From NCBI RefSeq assembly GCF_041886205.1, contig NZ_CP169031.1: 64,000 bases of DNA. The stretch is one strand, 5' to 3'. Numbering within the stretch: the first letter of the stretch is position 1; each line of letters opens with the position of its first letter. Origin of the DNA: Escherichia coli (GTDB lineage Bacteria > Pseudomonadota > Gammaproteobacteria > Enterobacterales > Enterobacteriaceae). Position numbers and translations under genes: made by a program. Shown one piece after another: positions 3,674 through 13,423 of the stretch. The notes beneath the pieces are model-generated. The model worked only from the letters and a program-made list of their open reading frames with translations, was not told the DNA's origin and searched no databases.

Positions 3674-5401
3674 TTGTGTTTAAGGAAGAGTAAATTGAGT
3701 AACTTACGCGAATACCAGAATCGTATTGCAGATATCGCAAAACGCTCTAAAGCTGTGCTTGGCTGGGCAAGCACTGCGCAGTTCGGTACTGATAACCAAT
3801 TCATTAAAGATGATGCCGCGCGTGCCGCATCTATCCTTGAAGCTGCACGTAAAGACCCGGTTTTTGCGGGTATCTCTGATAATGCCACCGCTCAAATCGC
3901 TACAGCGTGGGCAAGTGCACTGGCTGACTACGCCGCAGCACATAAATCTATGCCGCGTCCGGAAATTCTGGCCTCCTGCCACCAGACGCTGGAAAACTGC
4001 CTGATTGAGTCCACCCGCAATAGCATGGATGCCACTAATAAAGCGATGCTGGAATCCGTCGCAGCAGAGATGATGAGCGTTTCTGACGGTGTTATGCGTC
4101 TGCCTTTATTCCTCGCGATGATCCTGCCTGTTCAGTTGGGGGCCGCTACCGCTGATGCGTGTACCTTCATTCCGGTTACGCGTGACCAGTCAGACATCTA
4201 TGAAGTCTTTAACGTGGCAGGTTCCTCTTTTGGTTCTTATGCTGCTGGTGATGTTCTGGACATGCAATCCGTCGGGGTGTACAGCCAGTTACGCCGCCGC
4301 TATGTGCTGGTGGCAAGCTCCGATGGCACCAGCAAAACCGCAACCTTCAAGATGGAAGACTTCGAAGGCCAGAATGTACCAATCCGAAAAGGTCGTACTA
4401 ACATCTACGTTAACCGTATTAAGTCTGTTGTTGATAACGGTTCCGGCAGCCTACTTCACTCGTTTACTAATGCTGCTGGTGAGCAAATCACTGTTACCTG
4501 CTCTCTGAACTACAACATTGGTCAGATTGCCCTGTCGTTCTCCAAAGCGCCGGATAAAGGCACTGAGATCGCAATTGAGACGGAAATCAATATTGAAGCC
4601 GCTCCTGAGCTGATCCCGCTGATCAACCACGAAATGAAGAAATACACCCTGTTCCCAAGCCAGTTCGTTATCGCGGCTGAGCACACGGTACAGGCGGCGT
4701 ATGAAGCACAGCGTGAATTTGGTCTGGACCTGGGTTCCCTACAGTTCCGCACCCTGAAGGAATACCTGTCTCATGAACAGGATATGCTGCGTCTTCGCAT
4801 CATGATCTGGCGTACTCTTGCGACCGACACCTTTGACATCGCTCTGCCGGTTAACCAGTCCTTTGATGTATGGGCAACCATCATTCGTGGCAAATTCCAG
4901 ACTGTATATCGCGACATTATTGAGCGCGTTAAATCTTCTGGTGCGATGGGGATGTTTGCTGGTGCTGATGCAGCATCTTTCTTCAAACAGTTGCCGAAGG
5001 ATTTCTTCCAGCCAGCCGAAGACTATATCCAGACTCCGTATGTTCACTACATCGGTACCCTGTTCGGTAACGTGAAAGTGTACGAAGTACCTGCTGGTAT
5101 TTGTAAGAACTTAACGACAGAGAACATTCAGTTCAGCTCGATGGATGTGCTGTGCTACGTCCGTGATGAAAATCCGGGTAAAGCAGGCTTCGTGACTGGT
5201 GATGCTGTCCCGGCTATCCCGTTCCAGCATCCGACCACTCCGGCGCTGGTCAACCGTACCACACTGTGGGGTTCGGCTATCAACGATATGCACCCACGCA
5301 ACGGCGCTGATTACTTCACTCGTGTAACGCTGACAATGGCCAAAAAAGGCGGGCTTAACTTCATTAGCGGCGACACGATTGATGCCGGTGACTCTGAGTA
5401 A
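3674..5401 (+). CDS. Putative major head protein precursor (P1 gene 23-like)
   Basis: 575-aa ORF, first gene after parS and preceded by a late-promoter-like element. The track start is TTG; an in-frame TTG at 3695 has a better RBS (aaggaag). Confidence 0.5.
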   Translation: MCLRKSKLSNLREYQNRIADIAKRSKAVLGWASTAQFGTDNQFIKDDAARAASILEAARKDPVFAGISDNATAQIATAWASALADYAAAHKSMPRPEILASCHQTLENCLIESTRNSMDATNKAMLESVAAEMMSVSDGVMRLPLFLAMILPVQLGAATADACTFIPVTRDQSDIYEVFNVAGSSFGSYAAGDVLDMQSVGVYSQLRRRYVLVASSDGTSKTATFKMEDFEGQNVPIRKGRTNIYVNRIKSVVDNGSGSLLHSFTNAAGEQITVTCSLNYNIGQIALSFSKAPDKGTEIAIETEINIEAAPELIPLINHEMKKYTLFPSQFVIAAEHTVQAAYEAQREFGLDLGSLQFRTLKEYLSHEQDMLRLRIMIWRTLATDTFDIALPVNQSFDVWATIIRGKFQTVYRDIIERVKSSGAMGMFAGADAASFFKQLPKDFFQPAEDYIQTPYVHYIGTLFGNVKVYEVPAGICKNLTTENIQFSSMDVLCYVRDENPGKAGFVTGDAVPAIPFQHPTTPALVNRTTLWGSAINDMHPRNGADYFTRVTLTMAKKGGLNFISGDTIDAGDSE

Positions 5402-5461
5402 TCAGGGGAAGTTCTCCGTTTAACATAGCGCCCCCGTGCGGGGCGCATAACAGGGAAAGTT

Positions 5462-7051
5462 ATGTCTCAATATTCAATTCAACAGTCATTAGGTAATGCA
5501 TCCGGCGTCGCGGTTAGCCCGATCAATGCCGATGCGACGTTATCTACCGGTGTTGCATTAAATAGCAGCTTGTGGGCTGGTATTGGCGTATTTGCGCGTG
5601 GCAAGCCGTTTACTGTTCTTGCGGTTACTGAGTCCAATTACGAAGATGTTCTCGGCGAACCGCTGAAGCCGTCTTCCGGCTCACAGTTCGAACCAATTCG
5701 CCATGTATACGAAGCTATTCAGCAAACGTCAGGTTATGTTGTTCGTGCTGTTCCGGATGATGCGAAGTTCCCGATTATTATGTTCGATGAATCAGGCGAA
5801 CCGGCTTACAGTGCGTTGCCATACGGTTCTGAAATTGAACTTGATAGTGGCGAAGCCTTTGCTATCTACGTTGATGATGGTGATCCGTGTATTTCACCTA
5901 CCCGTGAGTTAACCATCGAAACGGCAACAGCGGACAGCGCGGGTAATGAACGCTTCCTCTTAAAACTGACCCAGACGACTTCGCTCGGCGTGGTAACGAC
6001 CCTGGAGACACACACTGTGTCTTTGGCGGAAGAAGCGAAAGATGACATGGGCCGCTTGTGTTATCTGCCTACGGCTCTGGAAGCCCGTTCTAAATATCTG
6101 CGCGCGGTTGTTAATGAAGAGCTGATTTCGACGGCGAAAGTAACAAATAAAAAATCGTTGGCGTTCACTGGTGGTACCAACGGTGATCAGTCGAAAATCT
6201 CAACCGCTGCGTACCTGCGTGCGGTGAAAGTGCTGAACAATGCGCCGTACATGTACACCGCTGTTCTCGGCCTGGGTTGCTATGACAATGCGGCGATCAC
6301 CGCGTTAGGTAATATTTGTTCTGATCGCCTGATTGATGGCTTCTTTGATGTCAAACCGACATTGACGTATACGGAAGCGCTCTCTGCTGTTGAAGATACC
6401 GGTTTACTTGGTACCGATTATGTAAGCTGTGCTGTCTATCACTTCCCGTTCTCCTGCAAAGACAAATGGACCCAATCCCGTGTGGTCTTCGGTCTGTCTG
6501 GCGCGGCGTATGCGGCGAAAGCTCGTGGCGTCAAGAAAAACTCTGATGTCGGCGGTTGGCATTACTCACCGGCTGGTGAAGAACGTGCCGTCATTGCTCG
6601 TGCGTCAATTCAACCGCTGTATCCGGAAGATACCCCGGACGAAGAAGCAATGGTTAAGGGCCGCCTCAATAAAGTATCTGTTGGCACCTCTGGCCAGATG
6701 ATCATCGACGATGCTTTAACTTGCTGCACGCAGGATAACTATCTGCACTTCCAGCACGTCCCATCCCTGATGAATGCAATCAGCCGTTTCTTTGTCCAGT
6801 TAGCCCGCCAGATGAAGCATAGCCCTGACGGTATTACTGCCGCTGGTCTGACTAAAGGGATGACCAAACTTTTGGATCGCTTTGTCGCCTCCGGCGCTCT
6901 GGTGGCTCCTCGTGATCCTGATGCTGACGGTACAGAACCGTATGTGCTGAAAGTTACGCAGGCGGAATTCGATAAATGGGAAGTAGTCTGGGCCTGCTGC
7001 CCGACTGGCGTAGCCCGTCGTATCCAGGGCGTACCGCTGCTTATTAAGTAA
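5462..7051 (+). CDS. Putative contractile tail sheath protein
   Basis: 529-aa ORF of sheath-like size, placed between the head gene and tube-like genes. Assigned from position and size only. Confidence 0.45.
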   Translation: MSQYSIQQSLGNASGVAVSPINADATLSTGVALNSSLWAGIGVFARGKPFTVLAVTESNYEDVLGEPLKPSSGSQFEPIRHVYEAIQQTSGYVVRAVPDDAKFPIIMFDESGEPAYSALPYGSEIELDSGEAFAIYVDDGDPCISPTRELTIETATADSAGNERFLLKLTQTTSLGVVTTLETHTVSLAEEAKDDMGRLCYLPTALEARSKYLRAVVNEELISTAKVTNKKSLAFTGGTNGDQSKISTAAYLRAVKVLNNAPYMYTAVLGLGCYDNAAITALGNICSDRLIDGFFDVKPTLTYTEALSAVEDTGLLGTDYVSCAVYHFPFSCKDKWTQSRVVFGLSGAAYAAKARGVKKNSDVGGWHYSPAGEERAVIARASIQPLYPEDTPDEEAMVKGRLNKVSVGTSGQMIIDDALTCCTQDNYLHFQHVPSLMNAISRFFVQLARQMKHSPDGITAAGLTKGMTKLLDRFVASGALVAPRDPDADGTEPYVLKVTQAEFDKWEVVWACCPTGVARRIQGVPLLIK

Positions 7052-8504: not shown

Positions 8505-9014
8505 ATGGGGCACAATAACACTAAGGGAAACCGTAAATTTATTAAGGGCCGCTATACTGCCAACGCGGCCAAAGGCGAACGACTGGTATCTTCTGAATTC
8601 CAGCTCACTTTTGCAGGCCATGAAGATATCAGCGTACTGGTTCGCACGTCGCAAATTCCTGAAATGACCCGCGAGGATGTGGAGGACTATGGTCCGAATG
8701 GTGTGAAGTTCAACCAGCACGGTCCAATTCGAAACTCTGGGGAAATCCAGGTCCAGTGCGTGGAGACTATCGAAGGCGATATTCTTCAGTTCATTAAAGA
8801 TCGCATTGCGGCGAAGGACTATGTTGATATCACGATGGCTGCTACCCCTGAATCCAAATCTTCCGGGGTTAACGCTGTGACAAAAGCTGCTACAACAATT
8901 GAAATGTTGGACTGCAAAATCTACAGTGATGCAATCGACTTTAGTACCGAAGATGTGACTGCCGCTGTGCGTCCGTCACTTCGTATCGTTTACAACTGGA
9001 TTGAGTGGGATTAA
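8505..9014 (+). CDS. Putative tail tube protein (gp19-like)
   Basis: 169 aa; size and the C-terminal ...NWIEWD ending are reminiscent of myovirus tube proteins. Followed by an intrinsic terminator. Confidence 0.45.
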   Translation: MGHNNTKGNRKFIKGRYTANAAKGERLVSSEFQLTFAGHEDISVLVRTSQIPEMTREDVEDYGPNGVKFNQHGPIRNSGEIQVQCVETIEGDILQFIKDRIAAKDYVDITMAATPESKSSGVNAVTKAATTIEMLDCKIYSDAIDFSTEDVTAAVRPSLRIVYNWIEWD

Positions 9015-9033
9015 GAGTCATCCCTTGTATTTT

Positions 9034-9057
9034 AAAGCTCCTGCGGGAGCTTTTTTT
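9034..9057 (+). terminator. Rho-independent terminator
   Basis: Hairpin aaagctcc-tgcg-ggagcttt followed by a T-run. Confidence 0.55.
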
Positions 9058-9185
9058 ATAACTATTTTATATAAACATGCATCGATAACATTGTCTGGAG
9101 TTTTATGTTAGATTATTAATGTTCTAATAAACTACAATTATTGAGGTAGATGTTTGTGCCTGTACTGTTAAAGGGGGACTCTAAA

Positions 9186-9782
9186 ATGGCTGTGATTCCA
9201 ATGTCGTACTCCCCGGGTACTGTCGCTCGTCGATTTTCGATCCTGGACGGAGTTACCATCCAGGGTGTGCTTTACCAGGTTATATGGGATTCCAAAACCC
9301 CATTTGCAGCTGTAATAGAGGCTGCGCCTTCTGTTATCGATGGTGATATGCGCCATAAGGTTGTCGCTACTCTTGAACTTCAACGTCGCCCGCAGCTTGA
9401 AGGCGTACTGGTAAGGAAGTTCTGGGAGGATAGCGATGTTGCCCAGATTGAAGGTATCGTGGTTGATGGAACCGTCCGTGATGTCGGTTTAGCTACTTTT
9501 GTTTACGAAACCGTAGCCTCAAAAGCTGGTGTTGTTTTGCTTAGTGATAATGAGCAATACGAAGGTGGAAAAGCTCTTTGGCAACACATCGCCCGTCGCT
9601 CTTCCGAGCTAAAAGTGTTTATCCTCGACACCGATGCCGCTCAGTATTACCCGTTTGACGGCGAACGTGTTTGCTATGACGGGGTAAGTATTCCTGAATC
9701 TGAGATATGGAGTGAACACCCAGATCGAAGTAAGCATGGGGTTGTTCTTGTCGCTGAATCCATAACTGGAAAGGCGGCATAG
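9186..9782 (+). CDS. Hypothetical protein
   Basis: ORF track 9150..9782; the preferred start at 9186 (MAVIPMS...) has an aaggggga RBS. No recognisable motif. Confidence 0.4.
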   Translation: MAVIPMSYSPGTVARRFSILDGVTIQGVLYQVIWDSKTPFAAVIEAAPSVIDGDMRHKVVATLELQRRPQLEGVLVRKFWEDSDVAQIEGIVVDGTVRDVGLATFVYETVASKAGVVLLSDNEQYEGGKALWQHIARRSSELKVFILDTDAAQYYPFDGERVCYDGVSIPESEIWSEHPDRSKHGVVLVAESITGKAA

Positions 9783-10070
9783 CAGTAAAATTCCTTGCTC
9801 CTTAAAAGGGGAGAGGGTTAATCTAGATATGCTAAGCATGGATATGGCCTCAGATTAATGTTAAGCGTCTTGCAGGACGCGTAATGTTATCTGGGGCTTT
9901 CTTCTGTTATTTGTTTGAGTGCTAGGCAGCAAAGAGAGCTAGCATTCATCAGGCAAATCTATCAATAAATAGCGTTAGTTTTTGTTGTGTGTATGTTTCT
10001 TTATTGTTATTGTGTTGTTTGTTTTTTGGACAACGCAATTCCTATAATCTATAGAATAAAGGAAGTATAT

Positions 10071-10358
10071 ATGGCTGATGTACGCATTACTTGCATTACC
10101 CTCTCCGGCTCGCAATCAATCCATGAGCATATTACTCATGTGGGAAGTCCTCAATTTAATACTAGCAATGGGAAATGGACTGTTGAGCAGGTAATTAATG
10201 CTATTGATAATAATCTCCATACATTCTATGTAACAGATAATGCAGGTAATCGTGTAGACGTTGGGGTTGTTAATCCTGGTAATGGTGGAAGGCAGTTTAT
10301 TAGAACGTATGCAGACAATCGATGGAATAATAATTTACTATCGCTACCAGTCTGTTAA
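10071..10358 (+). CDS. Small DUF3892-like protein
   Basis: 95 aa from MADVRITCI..., with an aaggaag RBS 5 nt upstream. The pattern ITHV...W...FYVTD...V.VV...G..FIRT..D...NNLLSLPVC matches my recollection of DUF3892 proteins. AT-rich leader. Confidence 0.4.
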   Translation: MADVRITCITLSGSQSIHEHITHVGSPQFNTSNGKWTVEQVINAIDNNLHTFYVTDNAGNRVDVGVVNPGNGGRQFIRTYADNRWNNNLLSLPVC

Positions 10359-10365
10359 TGTAATT

Positions 10366-10404
10366 TTATAAAAAAGGCTGCAACCTCTGTTGCAGCCTTT
10401 TTTT
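10366..10404. terminator. Bidirectional rho-independent terminator
   Basis: A-run, then ggctgcaac-ctct-gttgcagcc, then T-run, between the convergent DUF3892-like and ParA-like genes. Confidence 0.6.
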
Positions 10405-10428
10405 AGCCATTATGAGTGAGATAAGCCA

Positions 10429-11439
10429 CTATAAACTCTGAACAAGACGTTCGATTGCTGCACCATATCTTTCTAATGGTTCATTATTGATTTGTGGCTC
10501 AGTATCATGGATCTGATATCTGCCTGGTTTTATATCAAATAGAGGTCTTCCTAGATGGGAAGATACTATAGCTACGGAATGGTTATCTGGCACAGTAAAC
10601 GTTTTTAAATTTCCGCCTTGGAACGCTGTTGGTTTATTCGTCCGCAGATTTTCAGCTCTATCCCTGATTTCGTCGAACATTGCCGAAAACGCTTTACTTG
10701 CTCGTTTGTCATACTCTGTCGAACGATTAAAAACTAGAGAATGAATGACAGGAACCGCTAGACCAAACTGTTGACACCGATCGTAAAAGTTAACAGAACG
10801 ATAATCGTTTTGTACTCCAACGCCATAAACCAACTGGCTTAGGTTATCCACTGCTCGAGCCGAAGAACCATCACTTGAGCAAGGTATTATAATTGCATTT
10901 GCTGCTATCAGTGATAGTTCGGTATAGGCAGAGAAACTGGGGTTGCAATCAATAAAGCAAATGGTTTCTTCGATACCTTGTTGTTGTGCACATGCAACAA
11001 GCAAATCTCGTAGCCACAGGTGGATGCTTTTCCATGAGTCAACTGGTAAGTTTACGCTGCTTAACTGATTGATTACTTGCGCCTGAACTTCCAGGCTTGG
11101 GTCGCCTGCAATCAAAAATACATTGTCAGGGACATGTCCGTTAATTTCAGAGACATGAATTAAGAAACTTGTTTCTGAACCGGTAAGCATGTGGGGGCTG
11201 CGAGTTCTTCTGTCAAAGTACCCACCGACAGTTTTTCGTTGTTGAATTAAGCTCGCGAGGTTAGCAGCACCAGTACCGTTACCGCCGAGCAATATTTCAG
11301 ATAAGTTAGCCTGCGGGCACATATCTGCAAAAATAATACGCTTTTCTGGATTTTGCCTTGCGTATTCACAGGCCATAGCGAAAGATAAGTAGGTCTTTCC
11401 TACGCCACCTTTATTATTCCAAATAGCATACGATTTCAT
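10429..11439 (-). CDS. Orphan ParA/MinD-family P-loop ATPase with ~90-aa C-terminal extension
   Basis: Deviant Walker A (NNKGGVGKTY) near the N-terminus; likely start MKSYAIW at 11439 (track ORF extends to 11484). No partner ParB-like gene; separate from parAB at 1255-3428. Confidence 0.6.
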   Translation of the reverse strand: MKSYAIWNNKGGVGKTYLSFAMACEYARQNPEKRIIFADMCPQANLSEILLGGNGTGAANLASLIQQRKTVGGYFDRRTRSPHMLTGSETSFLIHVSEINGHVPDNVFLIAGDPSLEVQAQVINQLSSVNLPVDSWKSIHLWLRDLLVACAQQQGIEETICFIDCNPSFSAYTELSLIAANAIIIPCSSDGSSARAVDNLSQLVYGVGVQNDYRSVNFYDRCQQFGLAVPVIHSLVFNRSTEYDKRASKAFSAMFDEIRDRAENLRTNKPTAFQGGNLKTFTVPDNHSVAIVSSHLGRPLFDIKPGRYQIHDTEPQINNEPLERYGAAIERLVQSL

Positions 11440-11747
11440 GGTATCCCCGGCGTTATCTGCTGTTTGTGTGCCAGCATAAGTCATTATGCATCTCCATTAC
11501 TATCCATGAATTAAGTCAAAAAATATGTAAAAGTAGCAATGTATCACTCTTTTACTCATTATAAACGTTACAAGTTGTGATGGTTAGCTGTGTTTTTATC
11601 AGTACAAGTTTTGATCTGGCTTTGGGTTTTTATATATGGATATGTCTCAACGATGCCCTGCAAAAAGTGATCGCTAACTGTAAAAATCAGATTGCATCTC
11701 CGACCTCAAACTGAAAATGCCAGGTGACTCCAGATTAGAGCAATCTA

Positions 11748-12593
11748 TCACCCTCTGAATCCTGCCGGTATACCCCATTTTTCGTTATCTTTATTTTTGG
11801 CGAAAACCGCATTAAGAGCTTCGTTTACCGTCATGCAATGCGGCAGATTATCGAAGTTTGATATCCCGCTAATATCAGGAGAACGCTTGTTCTTCAGGTA
11901 AGTATATTTCCGCGCTGCCGCCTCTACTTTCTGCTTGAACTCATGTTTTTGAGCGCGTTTTTTGGATAACCGCAGATTGTCAGCCTTTGCTTTTGCCTCA
12001 GCGATCCATGAAGTCAATTTTTTGAGTCTGGTCGTTCCGGCACCGCCGGAAACTGATCTTTTTGTTTTTTTAATTTGTGACTTCTTATTCTTTATTGCCA
12101 CGTCATCCTGACAGGGGGAGGGGGTATCATTTTGACATGGGGGTGTGGATAAAAAATCAAATAAAGCCAATGTCTTAGCGAGAACAGCTTTAACCTTGGT
12201 TGCGGCTGAAGAGATCTTTAATTTGCTTTCAATTAGCGCATTTTTGGCTTGTTGAGCAAAGGCTAAAAAGGATGGTGTAAACCGGTACAGGTTAGCGCGG
12301 CGTTCACGGTGATCGCCGATAACAATCTCTACCGACAGGATTCCTTTGTTTACAGCTTCACGGAATGCGCGAACGACGGTTGATTGGCTATAACCAGTTT
12401 CTGCCGCGATCAGGCGGTGAGGCTTGTGAATGAAGTATTCACTGGTTGTTGCCGCGAGATTTGCACATTGCGACAGGATATGCCCGGCGCTACGGGATAG
12501 ACCGGAGTGTGTTACAAAGCAGGCCAATTCATAGCCAGAAAAAGTAAAATCGCTCATCGTTATACAGCTCAGGAAAGTGACTTTAGCCAGCAT
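11748..12593 (-). CDS. repL: Lytic replication protein RepL
   Basis: 281-aa ORF downstream of kilA in the ant-kilA-repL arrangement; size and sequence recalled as P1 RepL. Confidence 0.75.
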   Translation of the reverse strand: MLAKVTFLSCITMSDFTFSGYELACFVTHSGLSRSAGHILSQCANLAATTSEYFIHKPHRLIAAETGYSQSTVVRAFREAVNKGILSVEIVIGDHRERRANLYRFTPSFLAFAQQAKNALIESKLKISSAATKVKAVLAKTLALFDFLSTPPCQNDTPSPCQDDVAIKNKKSQIKKTKRSVSGGAGTTRLKKLTSWIAEAKAKADNLRLSKKRAQKHEFKQKVEAAARKYTYLKNKRSPDISGISNFDNLPHCMTVNEALNAVFAKNKDNEKWGIPAGFRG

Positions 12594-12622
12594 TACAATG
12601 CTGGTGGTTCTTACTACGTCTG

Positions 12623-13423
12623 TTAGCGCGTTGCCGCGACAGGTACCAGCACACCAGCATCAAGCAATCGCTTCATCAGCCACTGCTGACCTTTGCCGGT
12701 TATACGAGTCGTGAAAGAAATCCTGCTTCCATTGCTTGTATCGATCACGGTTTCTTTAAGGGTGAAATACCCACGGGATATGTATTCTTGTTTGGGGACG
12801 TTCCTGCGTTCACCGGTTGCGATCAGAATTCCGTTATCACGCAACCAGGTGAAGAGATAGTTTTGGCCCAGGCCGAGCACTTTGGCATAGTTGCCGATTA
12901 GAACCCCGCTGGCGGTAGCAACGCGTTCGGCGAATTCGACTTTAGGTGCATCCATAAGCATTTTTTGCTCCAGCCGTTGCTTTTGCTCTGCCAGGTCGGC
13001 AGCCAAACGGAGAGCTTCAGGGAGACTCTGCGGAATAGCAGGTTGTAATCTTCCGGCTCGATAGTCGATAAATGTCTGGTTTACCTTCAGCCGAAACGCG
13101 GGAGAAATCCAGCCTGCGTACTCCACTGCGAGCAATTCATGGGCAAAAGTGCCGCCGCCACGGCCTTCGAACGAAACTATGCAATTCTGCATAGTTTCTT
13201 TTTCAAGCTCTTCGATGAGCTGTTTGGCTGACAGCGTTCTTAGCCATTGAGCTGGCGCTTTATGGGCACCGAGTCCACTCGCTTTGTGTAGAGCATTAAG
13301 GTTGTAACGGCCAGCGCGGTCGGTCGTAATTTCAACACCACAAATAACAGGCAGAGTGGTTGAAGGATCGACATTTTGATGAAGGTTTGATATATTCATA
13401 TCCGCATTGAATGTTTGTTGCAT
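12623..13423 (-). CDS. kilA: KilA (KilA-N plus shared KilA-C/ANT domain)
   Basis: 266 aa; the C-terminal ~130 aa are clearly homologous to the Ant C-terminus (IPQSLPEALRLAADLAEQK... versus IPQTLPEALRLAAELAEQK...). Confidence 0.75.
   Translation of the reverse strand: MQQTFNADMNISNLHQNVDPSTTLPVICGVEITTDRAGRYNLNALHKASGLGAHKAPAQWLRTLSAKQLIEELEKETMQNCIVSFEGRGGGTFAHELLAVEYAGWISPAFRLKVNQTFIDYRAGRLQPAIPQSLPEALRLAADLAEQKQRLEQKMLMDAPKVEFAERVATASGVLIGNYAKVLGLGQNYLFTWLRDNGILIATGERRNVPKQEYISRGYFTLKETVIDTSNGSRISFTTRITGKGQQWLMKRLLDAGVLVPVAATR

Follow-up and report, generated by a model that had tools for sequence, protein, structure and literature searches.

We analyzed a 1751-bp region at positions 9906-11656 of a 64,000-nucleotide stretch of Escherichia coli DNA (NCBI RefSeq assembly GCF_041886205.1, contig NZ_CP169031.1), this whole stretch being termed the window. 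The window is a P1-like phage-plasmid, and the region under study lies between the gene at the pmgF position and repL, a gap occupied by two convergent open reading frames (ORFs). One ORF encodes a ParA/MinD-like ATPase and the other a small DUF3892 protein. The region is likely to be a cargo cassette that was acquired horizontally, stands in the slot of the P1 genes rlfA and rlfB and carries two independent conflict-related genes, with the ATPase as an anti-phage protein of the family of GiPD474. All features described in the initial annotation of this region were found to be present, some of them with refined coordinates. They are listed here with those added by our analysis.

9906..11656, no strand: cargo cassette with both genes, 1751 bp, in the variable slot between a pmgF-like gene and repL
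10071..10358, plus strand: DUF3892 protein, 95 aa (Pfam DUF3892)
10370..10403, no strand: bidirectional intrinsic terminator common to the convergent genes (folding, repeat search)
10429..11484, minus strand: predicted GiPD474-family ParA/MinD-like ATPase, 351 aa (conserved core of 336 aa from the ATG at 11439)
11558..11563, minus strand: candidate -10 hexamer TATAAT for the ATPase gene's own promoter (assigned by eye)
11569..11615, minus strand: two direct repeats, ATCA(C/A)AACTTGTA, with copies at 11569-11581 and 11603-11615
11728..11744, minus strand: C1 operator remnant, positional homologue of P1 Orlf, formerly Op55 (P1 annotation and alignment)

The ATPase was related to GiPD474, a defence protein of the Gifsy-1 prophage of Salmonella Typhimurium 4/74 (Bosma, Noireaux and Bowden, AEM 2025, PMC12724215). 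GiPD474 is a 361-aa protein with GGVGKT at residues 29-34, encoded by a single gene in the Gifsy-1 immunity region that is strongly transcribed in exponential growth (PMC12724215). Its deletion restored plating of FO1, and its expression gave ~5-log protection against T4 and Alf5 in Salmonella LT2 and E. coli K-12, FO1 being a further phage blocked to about this degree, with no protection against T7, SP6, S16 and others; the protein functions alone in a heterologous host (PMC12724215). We recovered the GiPD474 sequence from three IMG/VR contigs by use of the check primer of that paper. The recovered ORF is 1086 bp as published, and the knock-out homology arm matches from ORF base 4 on. By BLASTP, residues 4-336 of the window ATPase aligned with residues 22-361 of GiPD474 at 36% identity and 59% positives (E 2e-79), and GiPD474 scored 318 bits (E 3e-99) against a profile of the window family. 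This homology spans the full length, including the C-terminal region that is foreign to ParA, and GiPD474 keeps 66 of the 94 residues invariant in the window family, all nucleotide-binding residues among them. The end-to-end homology and retained motifs indicate that a defence family described only recently, with one member of validated anti-phage activity, has in this ATPase a new and divergent member. Since it is just 36% identical to GiPD474, it would belong to a separate clade, the members of which keep 55-60% identity across bacterial phyla. The end-to-end match is thus to a protein from outside P1, and not to a known P1 backbone protein, the outcome which the initial annotation had named as speaking against its proposals; among the roles it had offered for the ATPase, defence fits best, given full-length homology to a validated defence protein. 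No PADLOC model matched the ATPase or the DUF3892 protein. For the ATPase this empty result is uninformative, as GiPD474 is likewise without a model in PADLOC v2. A literature search for the window ATPase accession and for ParA-like defence gave nothing.

The ATPase ORF (10429-11484, minus strand) encodes 351 aa from the ATG at 11484 (GGAG, 7 nt, ATG) or 336 aa from the ATG at 11439. Homologues outside the Enterobacterales begin at the MKSY/MRY position, which equals the ATG at 11439, and nucleotide similarity among homologues begins 1-13 nt before the MKSY codon. The 351-aa form, annotated by PGAP/RefSeq as 'ParA family protein', is plausible because every enterobacterial homologue keeps an in-frame 15-codon N-terminal extension that ends in G-x-[DE]-[DE]-T. 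The 336-aa length with a KGGVGKT motif given in the initial annotation therefore stands for the start at 11439, with the longer form as a plausible alternative. The motifs of the protein are WNNKGGVGKT (Walker A with the signature lysine), DMCPQANLSE, FIDCNPSFSAYTE (Walker B), PCSSDGSSARA and NRST. Across 42 homologues the catalytic motifs were found to be invariant, with conserved Walker A' and Walker B aspartates, and K10, K15, D39 and D164 were invariant and are retained in GiPD474. The 94 invariant columns include WNNKGGVGKT, DMCPQANLSE, GDPSLE, DCNPSF-AYTE, PC-DGSS-RA, NRST and SKAF together with a conserved C-terminal part. Three cysteines, C41, C165 and C187 (in DMCPQ, DCNP and PCSS), and likewise H295, are invariant in the window clade and retained in GiPD474; metal or redox functions are examples of the roles these residues could have.

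The fold of the ATPase in an AF2 model (pLDDT 89.7) is that of ParA/Soj/McdA (Foldseek E ~1e-11, TMq 0.5-0.6, 12-20% identity). At 336 aa, compared to ~250 aa for Soj, the protein has ~85 extra residues, which the model places partly in helices at ~56-105 and partly in a segment at the C terminus. Thus, the extra length noted in the initial annotation was confirmed, and its description as a C-terminal extension of ~90 aa was not, since it is not a simple tail. By profile search the ATPase matched phrog_164 (E 1.8e-41); it fell below every cut-off of the curated family models, with weak Pfam matches to AAA_31 and CbiA, and its best match by sequence in the PDB was the uncharacterised protein 3pg5. 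The family was found to comprise 4550 word-indexed homologues, many of them 55-60% identical over their full length, and 165 clusters (50% identity) were retrieved by profile search at E <= 1e-30. Judged from these sequences, the family is distinct and very conserved. Among fusion proteins, long homologues carry low-complexity, eukaryote-like tails alone, and no informative domains were detected. Full-length structural homologues in AFDB50 (TMq 0.8-0.9) were found in Mytilus mussels (with many paralogues), bdelloid and monogonont rotifers and coral, and further in Chlorella-type green algae, Chromera and a haptophyte; several of the eukaryotic homologues bear low-complexity tails. By analogy, this eukaryotic spread resembles that of other bacterial immune genes acquired by eukaryotes.

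The genomic contexts of the relatives were compared. Of 18 non-P1 IMG/VR phage loci with at least 71% identity, 15 had a CI-type repressor gene 131-895 bp ahead of the ATPase gene and in the same orientation. All ten upstream ORFs tested matched the repressor family phrog_4, with several different repressor sequences among them. The same arrangement was observed in Pseudomonas phage phi297 (~71%), a Serratia prophage (87%) and other prophage contigs; given this repressor-linked position, the family is presumably expressed in the lysogen. In Acidiferrobacter the neighbours of the ATPase gene include a PD-T4-7 homologue (E 6e-102), toxin-antitoxin genes and a fragment of HsdM, and in several enterobacterial prophages a PDC-S43 candidate (E 2.8e-40) lies directly upstream of it. 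Taken together, these repressor-linked and defence contexts would be the signature of a mobile gene that is expressed in the lysogen. The ATPase of the window is stand-alone accessory cargo in a temperate phage-plasmid, positioned behind repL and an Orlf-like C1 operator. The PDC-S43 candidate is a 113-114-aa ORF (MAFNDLEY...) found at 5360-5701, 1228-1572 and 1592-1936 of loci L033, L042 and L044, respectively; it stands between CI and the ATPase gene in L033, and CI is not nearby in L042-L044.

Two genomes, phage vB_EcoM-673R5 and a P1 of infant-faecal origin, were compared to the window to determine the bounds of the cassette. The flanks at 8700-9905 and 11657-13000 are 98% identical to vB_EcoM-673R5, which has 260 bp between them; because the 98% match to the backbone stops at 9905 and resumes at 11657, the 1751 bp in between are an insert. 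In 300-nt windows the GC content of the cassette was 0.34-0.46, with 0.47-0.52 in the structural genes to the left and 0.42-0.50 in the right flank (repL). The DUF3892 gene was detected in 42 P1-like plasmids of PLSDB, among 377 with flank matches (~11%), and the ATPase gene was found in those same 42 (complete in 40, truncated in 2), with a cassette identity of 98-100%. The whole cassette was also present in 37 of the 381 complete E. coli genomes with a match. At these frequencies, the view that a second ParA-like ATPase is unusual in such an element was not borne out.

In P1 and P7 the slot holds rlfA/rlfB (rapA/rapB) instead of the cassette. The P1 rlfB and rlfA genes (L003 2061-3229) occupy the slot equivalent to 9906-11656 of the window, and the cassette was found to have zero sequence similarity to them, as the alignment to P1 covers the flanks alone. 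Synteny thus places the cassette in the same slot, and the suggestion that the ATPase might be an rlf-type backbone gene was not upheld; from the alignments, the cassette is a replacement of rlfA/rlfB and not a variant of them. P1 RlfA and RlfB themselves matched PDC-M04A (E 1e-95) and PDC-M04B (E 1e-51), the parts of a two-gene PADLOC defence candidate. Because of these matches the slot appears to hold exchangeable defence-type cargo, and the region after repL has the appearance of a site where defence cargo is exchanged, under a C1 operator of the Orlf type.

The two genes of the cassette converge on a terminator with perfect 15-nt arms (10370-10384 and 10389-10403), a 4-nt loop and flanking A and T runs. 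Its folding energy was calculated at -21.3 and -22.4 kcal/mol for the two strands, with z ~-5.9 on both and 0 of 200 shuffles as stable, in agreement with the strong bidirectional terminator of the initial annotation. The promoter/terminator scan missed this terminator and a TATAAT hexamer at 11558-11563, and both were checked by folding and by eye. The hexamer, read from the sequence and not listed by the consensus scan, has a weak -35 (TAACCA) and is a candidate -10 element for an ATPase promoter that lies inside the cassette. Upstream are the direct repeats at 11569-11615, which are 34 nt apart and 92% identical; one immediately precedes the candidate promoter, and the other overlaps the promoter spacer. 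They may form the site of a regulator, and a two-copy repeat this short may also be due to chance. The scan found no terminator between repL and the ATPase gene. The C1 core ATTGCTCTAAT at 11734-11744 (minus strand), previously described as weak and operator-like, is a perfect 11-nt core and one of six in the window, compared to 0.06 expected (~100-fold enriched). It lies in the backbone, 4 bp beyond the stop codon of repL, at the position of the annotated P1 Orlf; the right half of the operator has 6 mismatches to the 17-mer consensus, compared to 5 for the Orlf of P1 itself. We rejected a conserved noncoding RNA ahead of the ATPase gene, which had been sought because several homologues have long upstream gaps: similarity among homologues starts 1-13 nt before MKSY, and Rfam hits were sub-threshold.

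The DUF3892 ORF extends from the ATG at 10071 (AGGA 7 nt upstream) to 10358 and encodes 95 aa. Its assignment in the initial annotation was confirmed by Pfam DUF3892 (PF13031; E 1.9e-15, model positions 1-71 of 71), with the start moved from the GTG at 9987 to this ATG, and the protein also matched phrog_8224 (E 1.4e-37). Its invariant residues are C8, ITHVG (21-25), D82, NLL (88-90) and the C-terminal C95, and ITHVG, C8 and C95 were invariant across 41 sequences; a metal site or a disulfide may be formed by C8, H23 and C95. The AF2 model (pLDDT 80) had no solved structural relative. An imperfect palindrome (TTCCTATAATCTATAGAATAAAGGAA) at 10039-10064 overlaps the likely -10 element and ribosome-binding site of the gene and could be an operator or a hairpin that sequesters the ribosome-binding site.

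We examined whether the two genes travel together. By HMM scans of 69 IMG/VR loci, the ATPase and DUF3892 genes were found together solely in the 97-100% identical P1 cassette, in 10 contigs that were fetched from both sides. A DUF3892 gene was found within 6 kb of none of the 21 other ATPase loci, and an ATPase gene at none of the 28 other DUF3892 loci. The DUF3892 gene is therefore not a conserved partner of the ATPase gene, and the pairing proposed in the initial annotation did not hold beyond the cassette. The nearest relatives outside P1 are at 87-93% identity for the ATPase and 74% for the DUF3892 protein. The latter relatives (E. coli; L014-L017, L070-L075) are at the end of a satellite-like element, where the DUF3892 gene is convergent with an unannotated ORF of 228-229 aa. 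This element has genes for a D5_N primase, SSB, capsid E, head decoration and AlpA, and abuts a truncated lambdoid capsid gene. In Proteus the DUF3892 gene is at a prophage edge, and others are within 1 kb of the ends of viral contigs. DUF3892 genes were also found 24-80 bp upstream, on the same strand, of PDC-S15 candidates with an FRG domain, of a PDC-S21 candidate and of a 303-aa putative membrane protein; the loci of the PDC-S15 and PDC-S21 type are L018-L020, L068-L069 and L090. This pattern suggests a modular arrangement in which a DUF3892 gene would be joined to a variable effector. In the literature, DUF3892 is described as cargo of CapH/CapP-regulated operons and in fusions to Min-Wnt effectors, conflict systems with DUF3892 were predicted by Burroughs and Aravind, and a role in defence or as a sensor, with RNA or ribosomes proposed as what is sensed, has been predicted.

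From these results we propose how the cassette may act. The ATPase would most likely guard the lysogen, and hence the plasmid prophage, against particular virulent phages after adsorption. ATP would be bound through the intact deviant Walker A, Walker A' and Walker B motifs, and the protein would then form a nucleotide-sandwich dimer of the ParA type by means of the signature lysine. This dimer may engage DNA or a phage-specific target and so block phage development, probably directly, as a recognisable effector domain is absent. Anti-phage activity, dimerisation, target and stage of the block are thus predictions for the window ATPase. In the lysogen the gene probably has its own promoter as the source of its transcripts, and read-through from the C1-controlled kilA-repL operon may add to its expression upon C1 inactivation, since no terminator separates the two. 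The DUF3892 gene would be a separate transcription unit and probably encodes a small sensor or adaptor-type defence accessory, because the family recurs at mobile-element edges and directly upstream of varied candidate effectors. Any role of this protein is likewise a prediction, and it is most simply viewed as a second, independent conflict-related gene.

Several points weigh against this interpretation. The identity to GiPD474 is only 36%, and the validated activity is that of GiPD474, which would fall outside the clade of the window ATPase. The mechanistic steps are extrapolated from the biochemistry of ParA and MinD and could differ here. Neither protein of the cassette has a PADLOC model, and DUF3892 proteins are without an experimentally established function. 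The ATPase promoter is a consensus guess, and the gene follows repL and a C1 operator remnant, not a repressor gene.

We considered whether the ATPase and DUF3892 protein form one two-component system in P1, in which DUF3892 would be a sensor, a regulator or an antidote and the ATPase the motor or the effector. Joint inheritance of the genes in the P1 cassette (42/42 plasmids, 10/10 IMG/VR contigs) is consistent with such a system, as are the tight linkage of DUF3892 genes elsewhere to PDC-S15, PDC-S21 and the 303-aa putative membrane protein, in the manner of a promiscuous adaptor, and the likewise convergent 228-229-aa gene of the E. coli satellite-like element. However, co-occurrence was limited to one cassette of 98-100% identity (0/21 other ATPase loci, 0/28 other DUF3892 loci), so the linkage is better explained by a single acquisition. 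The genes moreover face each other, each has its own start signals and a terminator separates them, their nearest relatives are at unequal distance (87-93% versus 74%), and GiPD474 works alone in a heterologous host. We thus find a two-component system unlikely. Still less probable is that DUF3892 is an anti-defence or regulatory protein of mobile elements and not a defence component. Its small size (95 aa), the lack of an enzymatic signature or a solved structural relative, and its location at the margins of prophages, of satellite-like elements and of an integrative element would suit such a role; but DUF3892 genes repeatedly stand right before candidate defence effectors, in the same orientation and 24-80 bp away, and CapH/CapP-regulated operons and Min-Wnt fusions are known from the literature. 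The charge of the protein, counted from the sequence, is near neutral, and therefore it is not a typical acidic DNA mimic.

A function of the ATPase in plasmid maintenance or incompatibility, in which this orphan ParA would position the P1 plasmid or interfere with the partition of rival replicons, appears very improbable, even though its ParA/Soj/McdA fold, its deviant Walker A, its presence in a low-copy plasmid prophage and the RefSeq name 'ParA family protein' would be expected of such a factor. No ParB-like gene or centromere was found beside the ATPase gene, the neighbours of which are the DUF3892 gene and repL, and the element has its own parA (KGGVSKT) at 1213-2466; the absence of a partner and the separation from parAB had been noted correctly in the initial annotation. 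The score to NCBIfam ParA_partition was 40 bits, compared to a curated cut-off of 180, and the Walker A region alone matched. With ParB absent and this score, the ATPase, as judged by profile and neighbourhood, is not a partition protein. Most relatives are, in addition, in integrated lambdoid or Pseudomonas prophages, where partition is not needed, directly after a repressor gene; ~89% of P1-like plasmids are without the ATPase gene; and the tested homologue, GiPD474, is a defence protein. Nothing was found in support of the incompatibility role raised earlier. Equally improbable is a replication-linked function, which the old name of the slot implied, in which the cassette genes serve phage lytic replication and are expressed with kilA-repL after C1 inactivation. 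The ATPase gene immediately follows repL in the same orientation, behind an Orlf-like C1 operator and without an intervening terminator, as this explanation would predict; yet the cassette is missing from most P1-like elements, P1 and P7 included, the ATPase family is found mainly in phages without repL, and RlfA and RlfB match defence candidates and not replication proteins.

The favoured interpretation, an acquired cassette of two independent conflict-related genes with a GiPD474-family ATPase, provides a probable function for a common annotation, as 'ParA family protein' genes of this type are in hundreds of P1-like plasmids and prophages. Such a function could influence the outcomes of phage therapy and of phage typing in E. 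coli, Salmonella and E. fergusonii. The rlf slot would hold PDC-M04 in P1 and P7 and the GiPD474-like ATPase with DUF3892 in the window. The family, which is very conserved, effector-less and has one validated member, may be tractable for learning how a ParA-type switch stops a phage. A broader proposal, which we regard as speculative and doubtful as a whole, is that GiPD474-like ATPases are a new mechanistic class of immunity, in which an effector-less ParA-type switch dimer acts directly on DNA or a phage factor; that the class is ancient and was acquired by mussels, rotifers, corals and algae, in which it then expanded; and that the P1 DUF3892 protein is a promiscuous sensor or adaptor newly coupled to it.

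In the surrounding backbone, pmgG, bplB and the gene at the pmgF position are on the plus strand, up to 9782, and repL (11748-12593), kilA and ant are on the minus strand. The pmgF position (9150-9782) is filled by a 210-aa ORF, whereas P1 PmgF is just 98 aa. This ORF is present in phage vB_EcoM-673R5 and missing from MH422554, and gave no match in PADLOC or NCBIfam. To the left of the cassette, 9778-9947 has a remnant of a hok/sok-type locus: 9816-9905 is an 87-96% match to DNA beside mokW or hok genes of P1 variants and Rac-like phages, the sok Rfam match at 9778-9947 was sub-threshold (23.7 bits versus 59), and an intact hok ORF was absent from this segment.

Compared to known systems, the window ATPase shares with the ParA, Soj, MinD and McdA positioning ATPases the fold and the deviant Walker A with its signature lysine. 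It differs from these in that a partner gene of the ParB, MinE or McdB type is lacking and in that the genomic context of its family is phage immunity regions and defence islands. The position downstream of the repressor gene is that of lambda rexAB. Like rexAB and the Gifsy-1 remAIN, the ATPase family is co-oriented with and directly downstream of a lysogeny repressor gene; the proteins are unrelated, however, and in the window the ATPase gene is not beside c1. The DUF3892 protein is similar to those found with FRG-domain (PDC-S15) or PDC-S21 candidates and in the systems of Burroughs and Aravind, as all are small DUF3892 proteins (43-74% identity) at mobile-element edges with defence-candidate neighbours. 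By contrast to the PDC-S15 and PDC-S21 loci, where the DUF3892 gene is co-directional and 24-80 bp upstream of its neighbour, that of the window is convergent on a GiPD474-like ATPase gene, an arrangement seen in the P1 cassette alone. P1 rlfA/rlfB and the cassette have in common the slot between pmgF and repL, the orientation (that of the ATPase gene), the position of the upstream C1 operator and the status of candidate defence cargo, and differ in that the P1 genes are co-directional and those of the window convergent. Relative to GiPD474, the window ATPase is on a P1-like plasmid prophage, follows repL and an Orlf-type C1 operator and not a CI gene, and is accompanied by a DUF3892 gene. The two proteins nonetheless have the same ParA/MinD-like core with the motifs WNNKGGVGKT, D-x-CPQ-N-SE, FIDCNPSF-YTE, PC-D and NRS and the same uncharacterised C-terminal region, both are encoded by single genes borne by temperate phages, and GiPD474 has the position after a repressor gene that is found for close relatives of the window ATPase.

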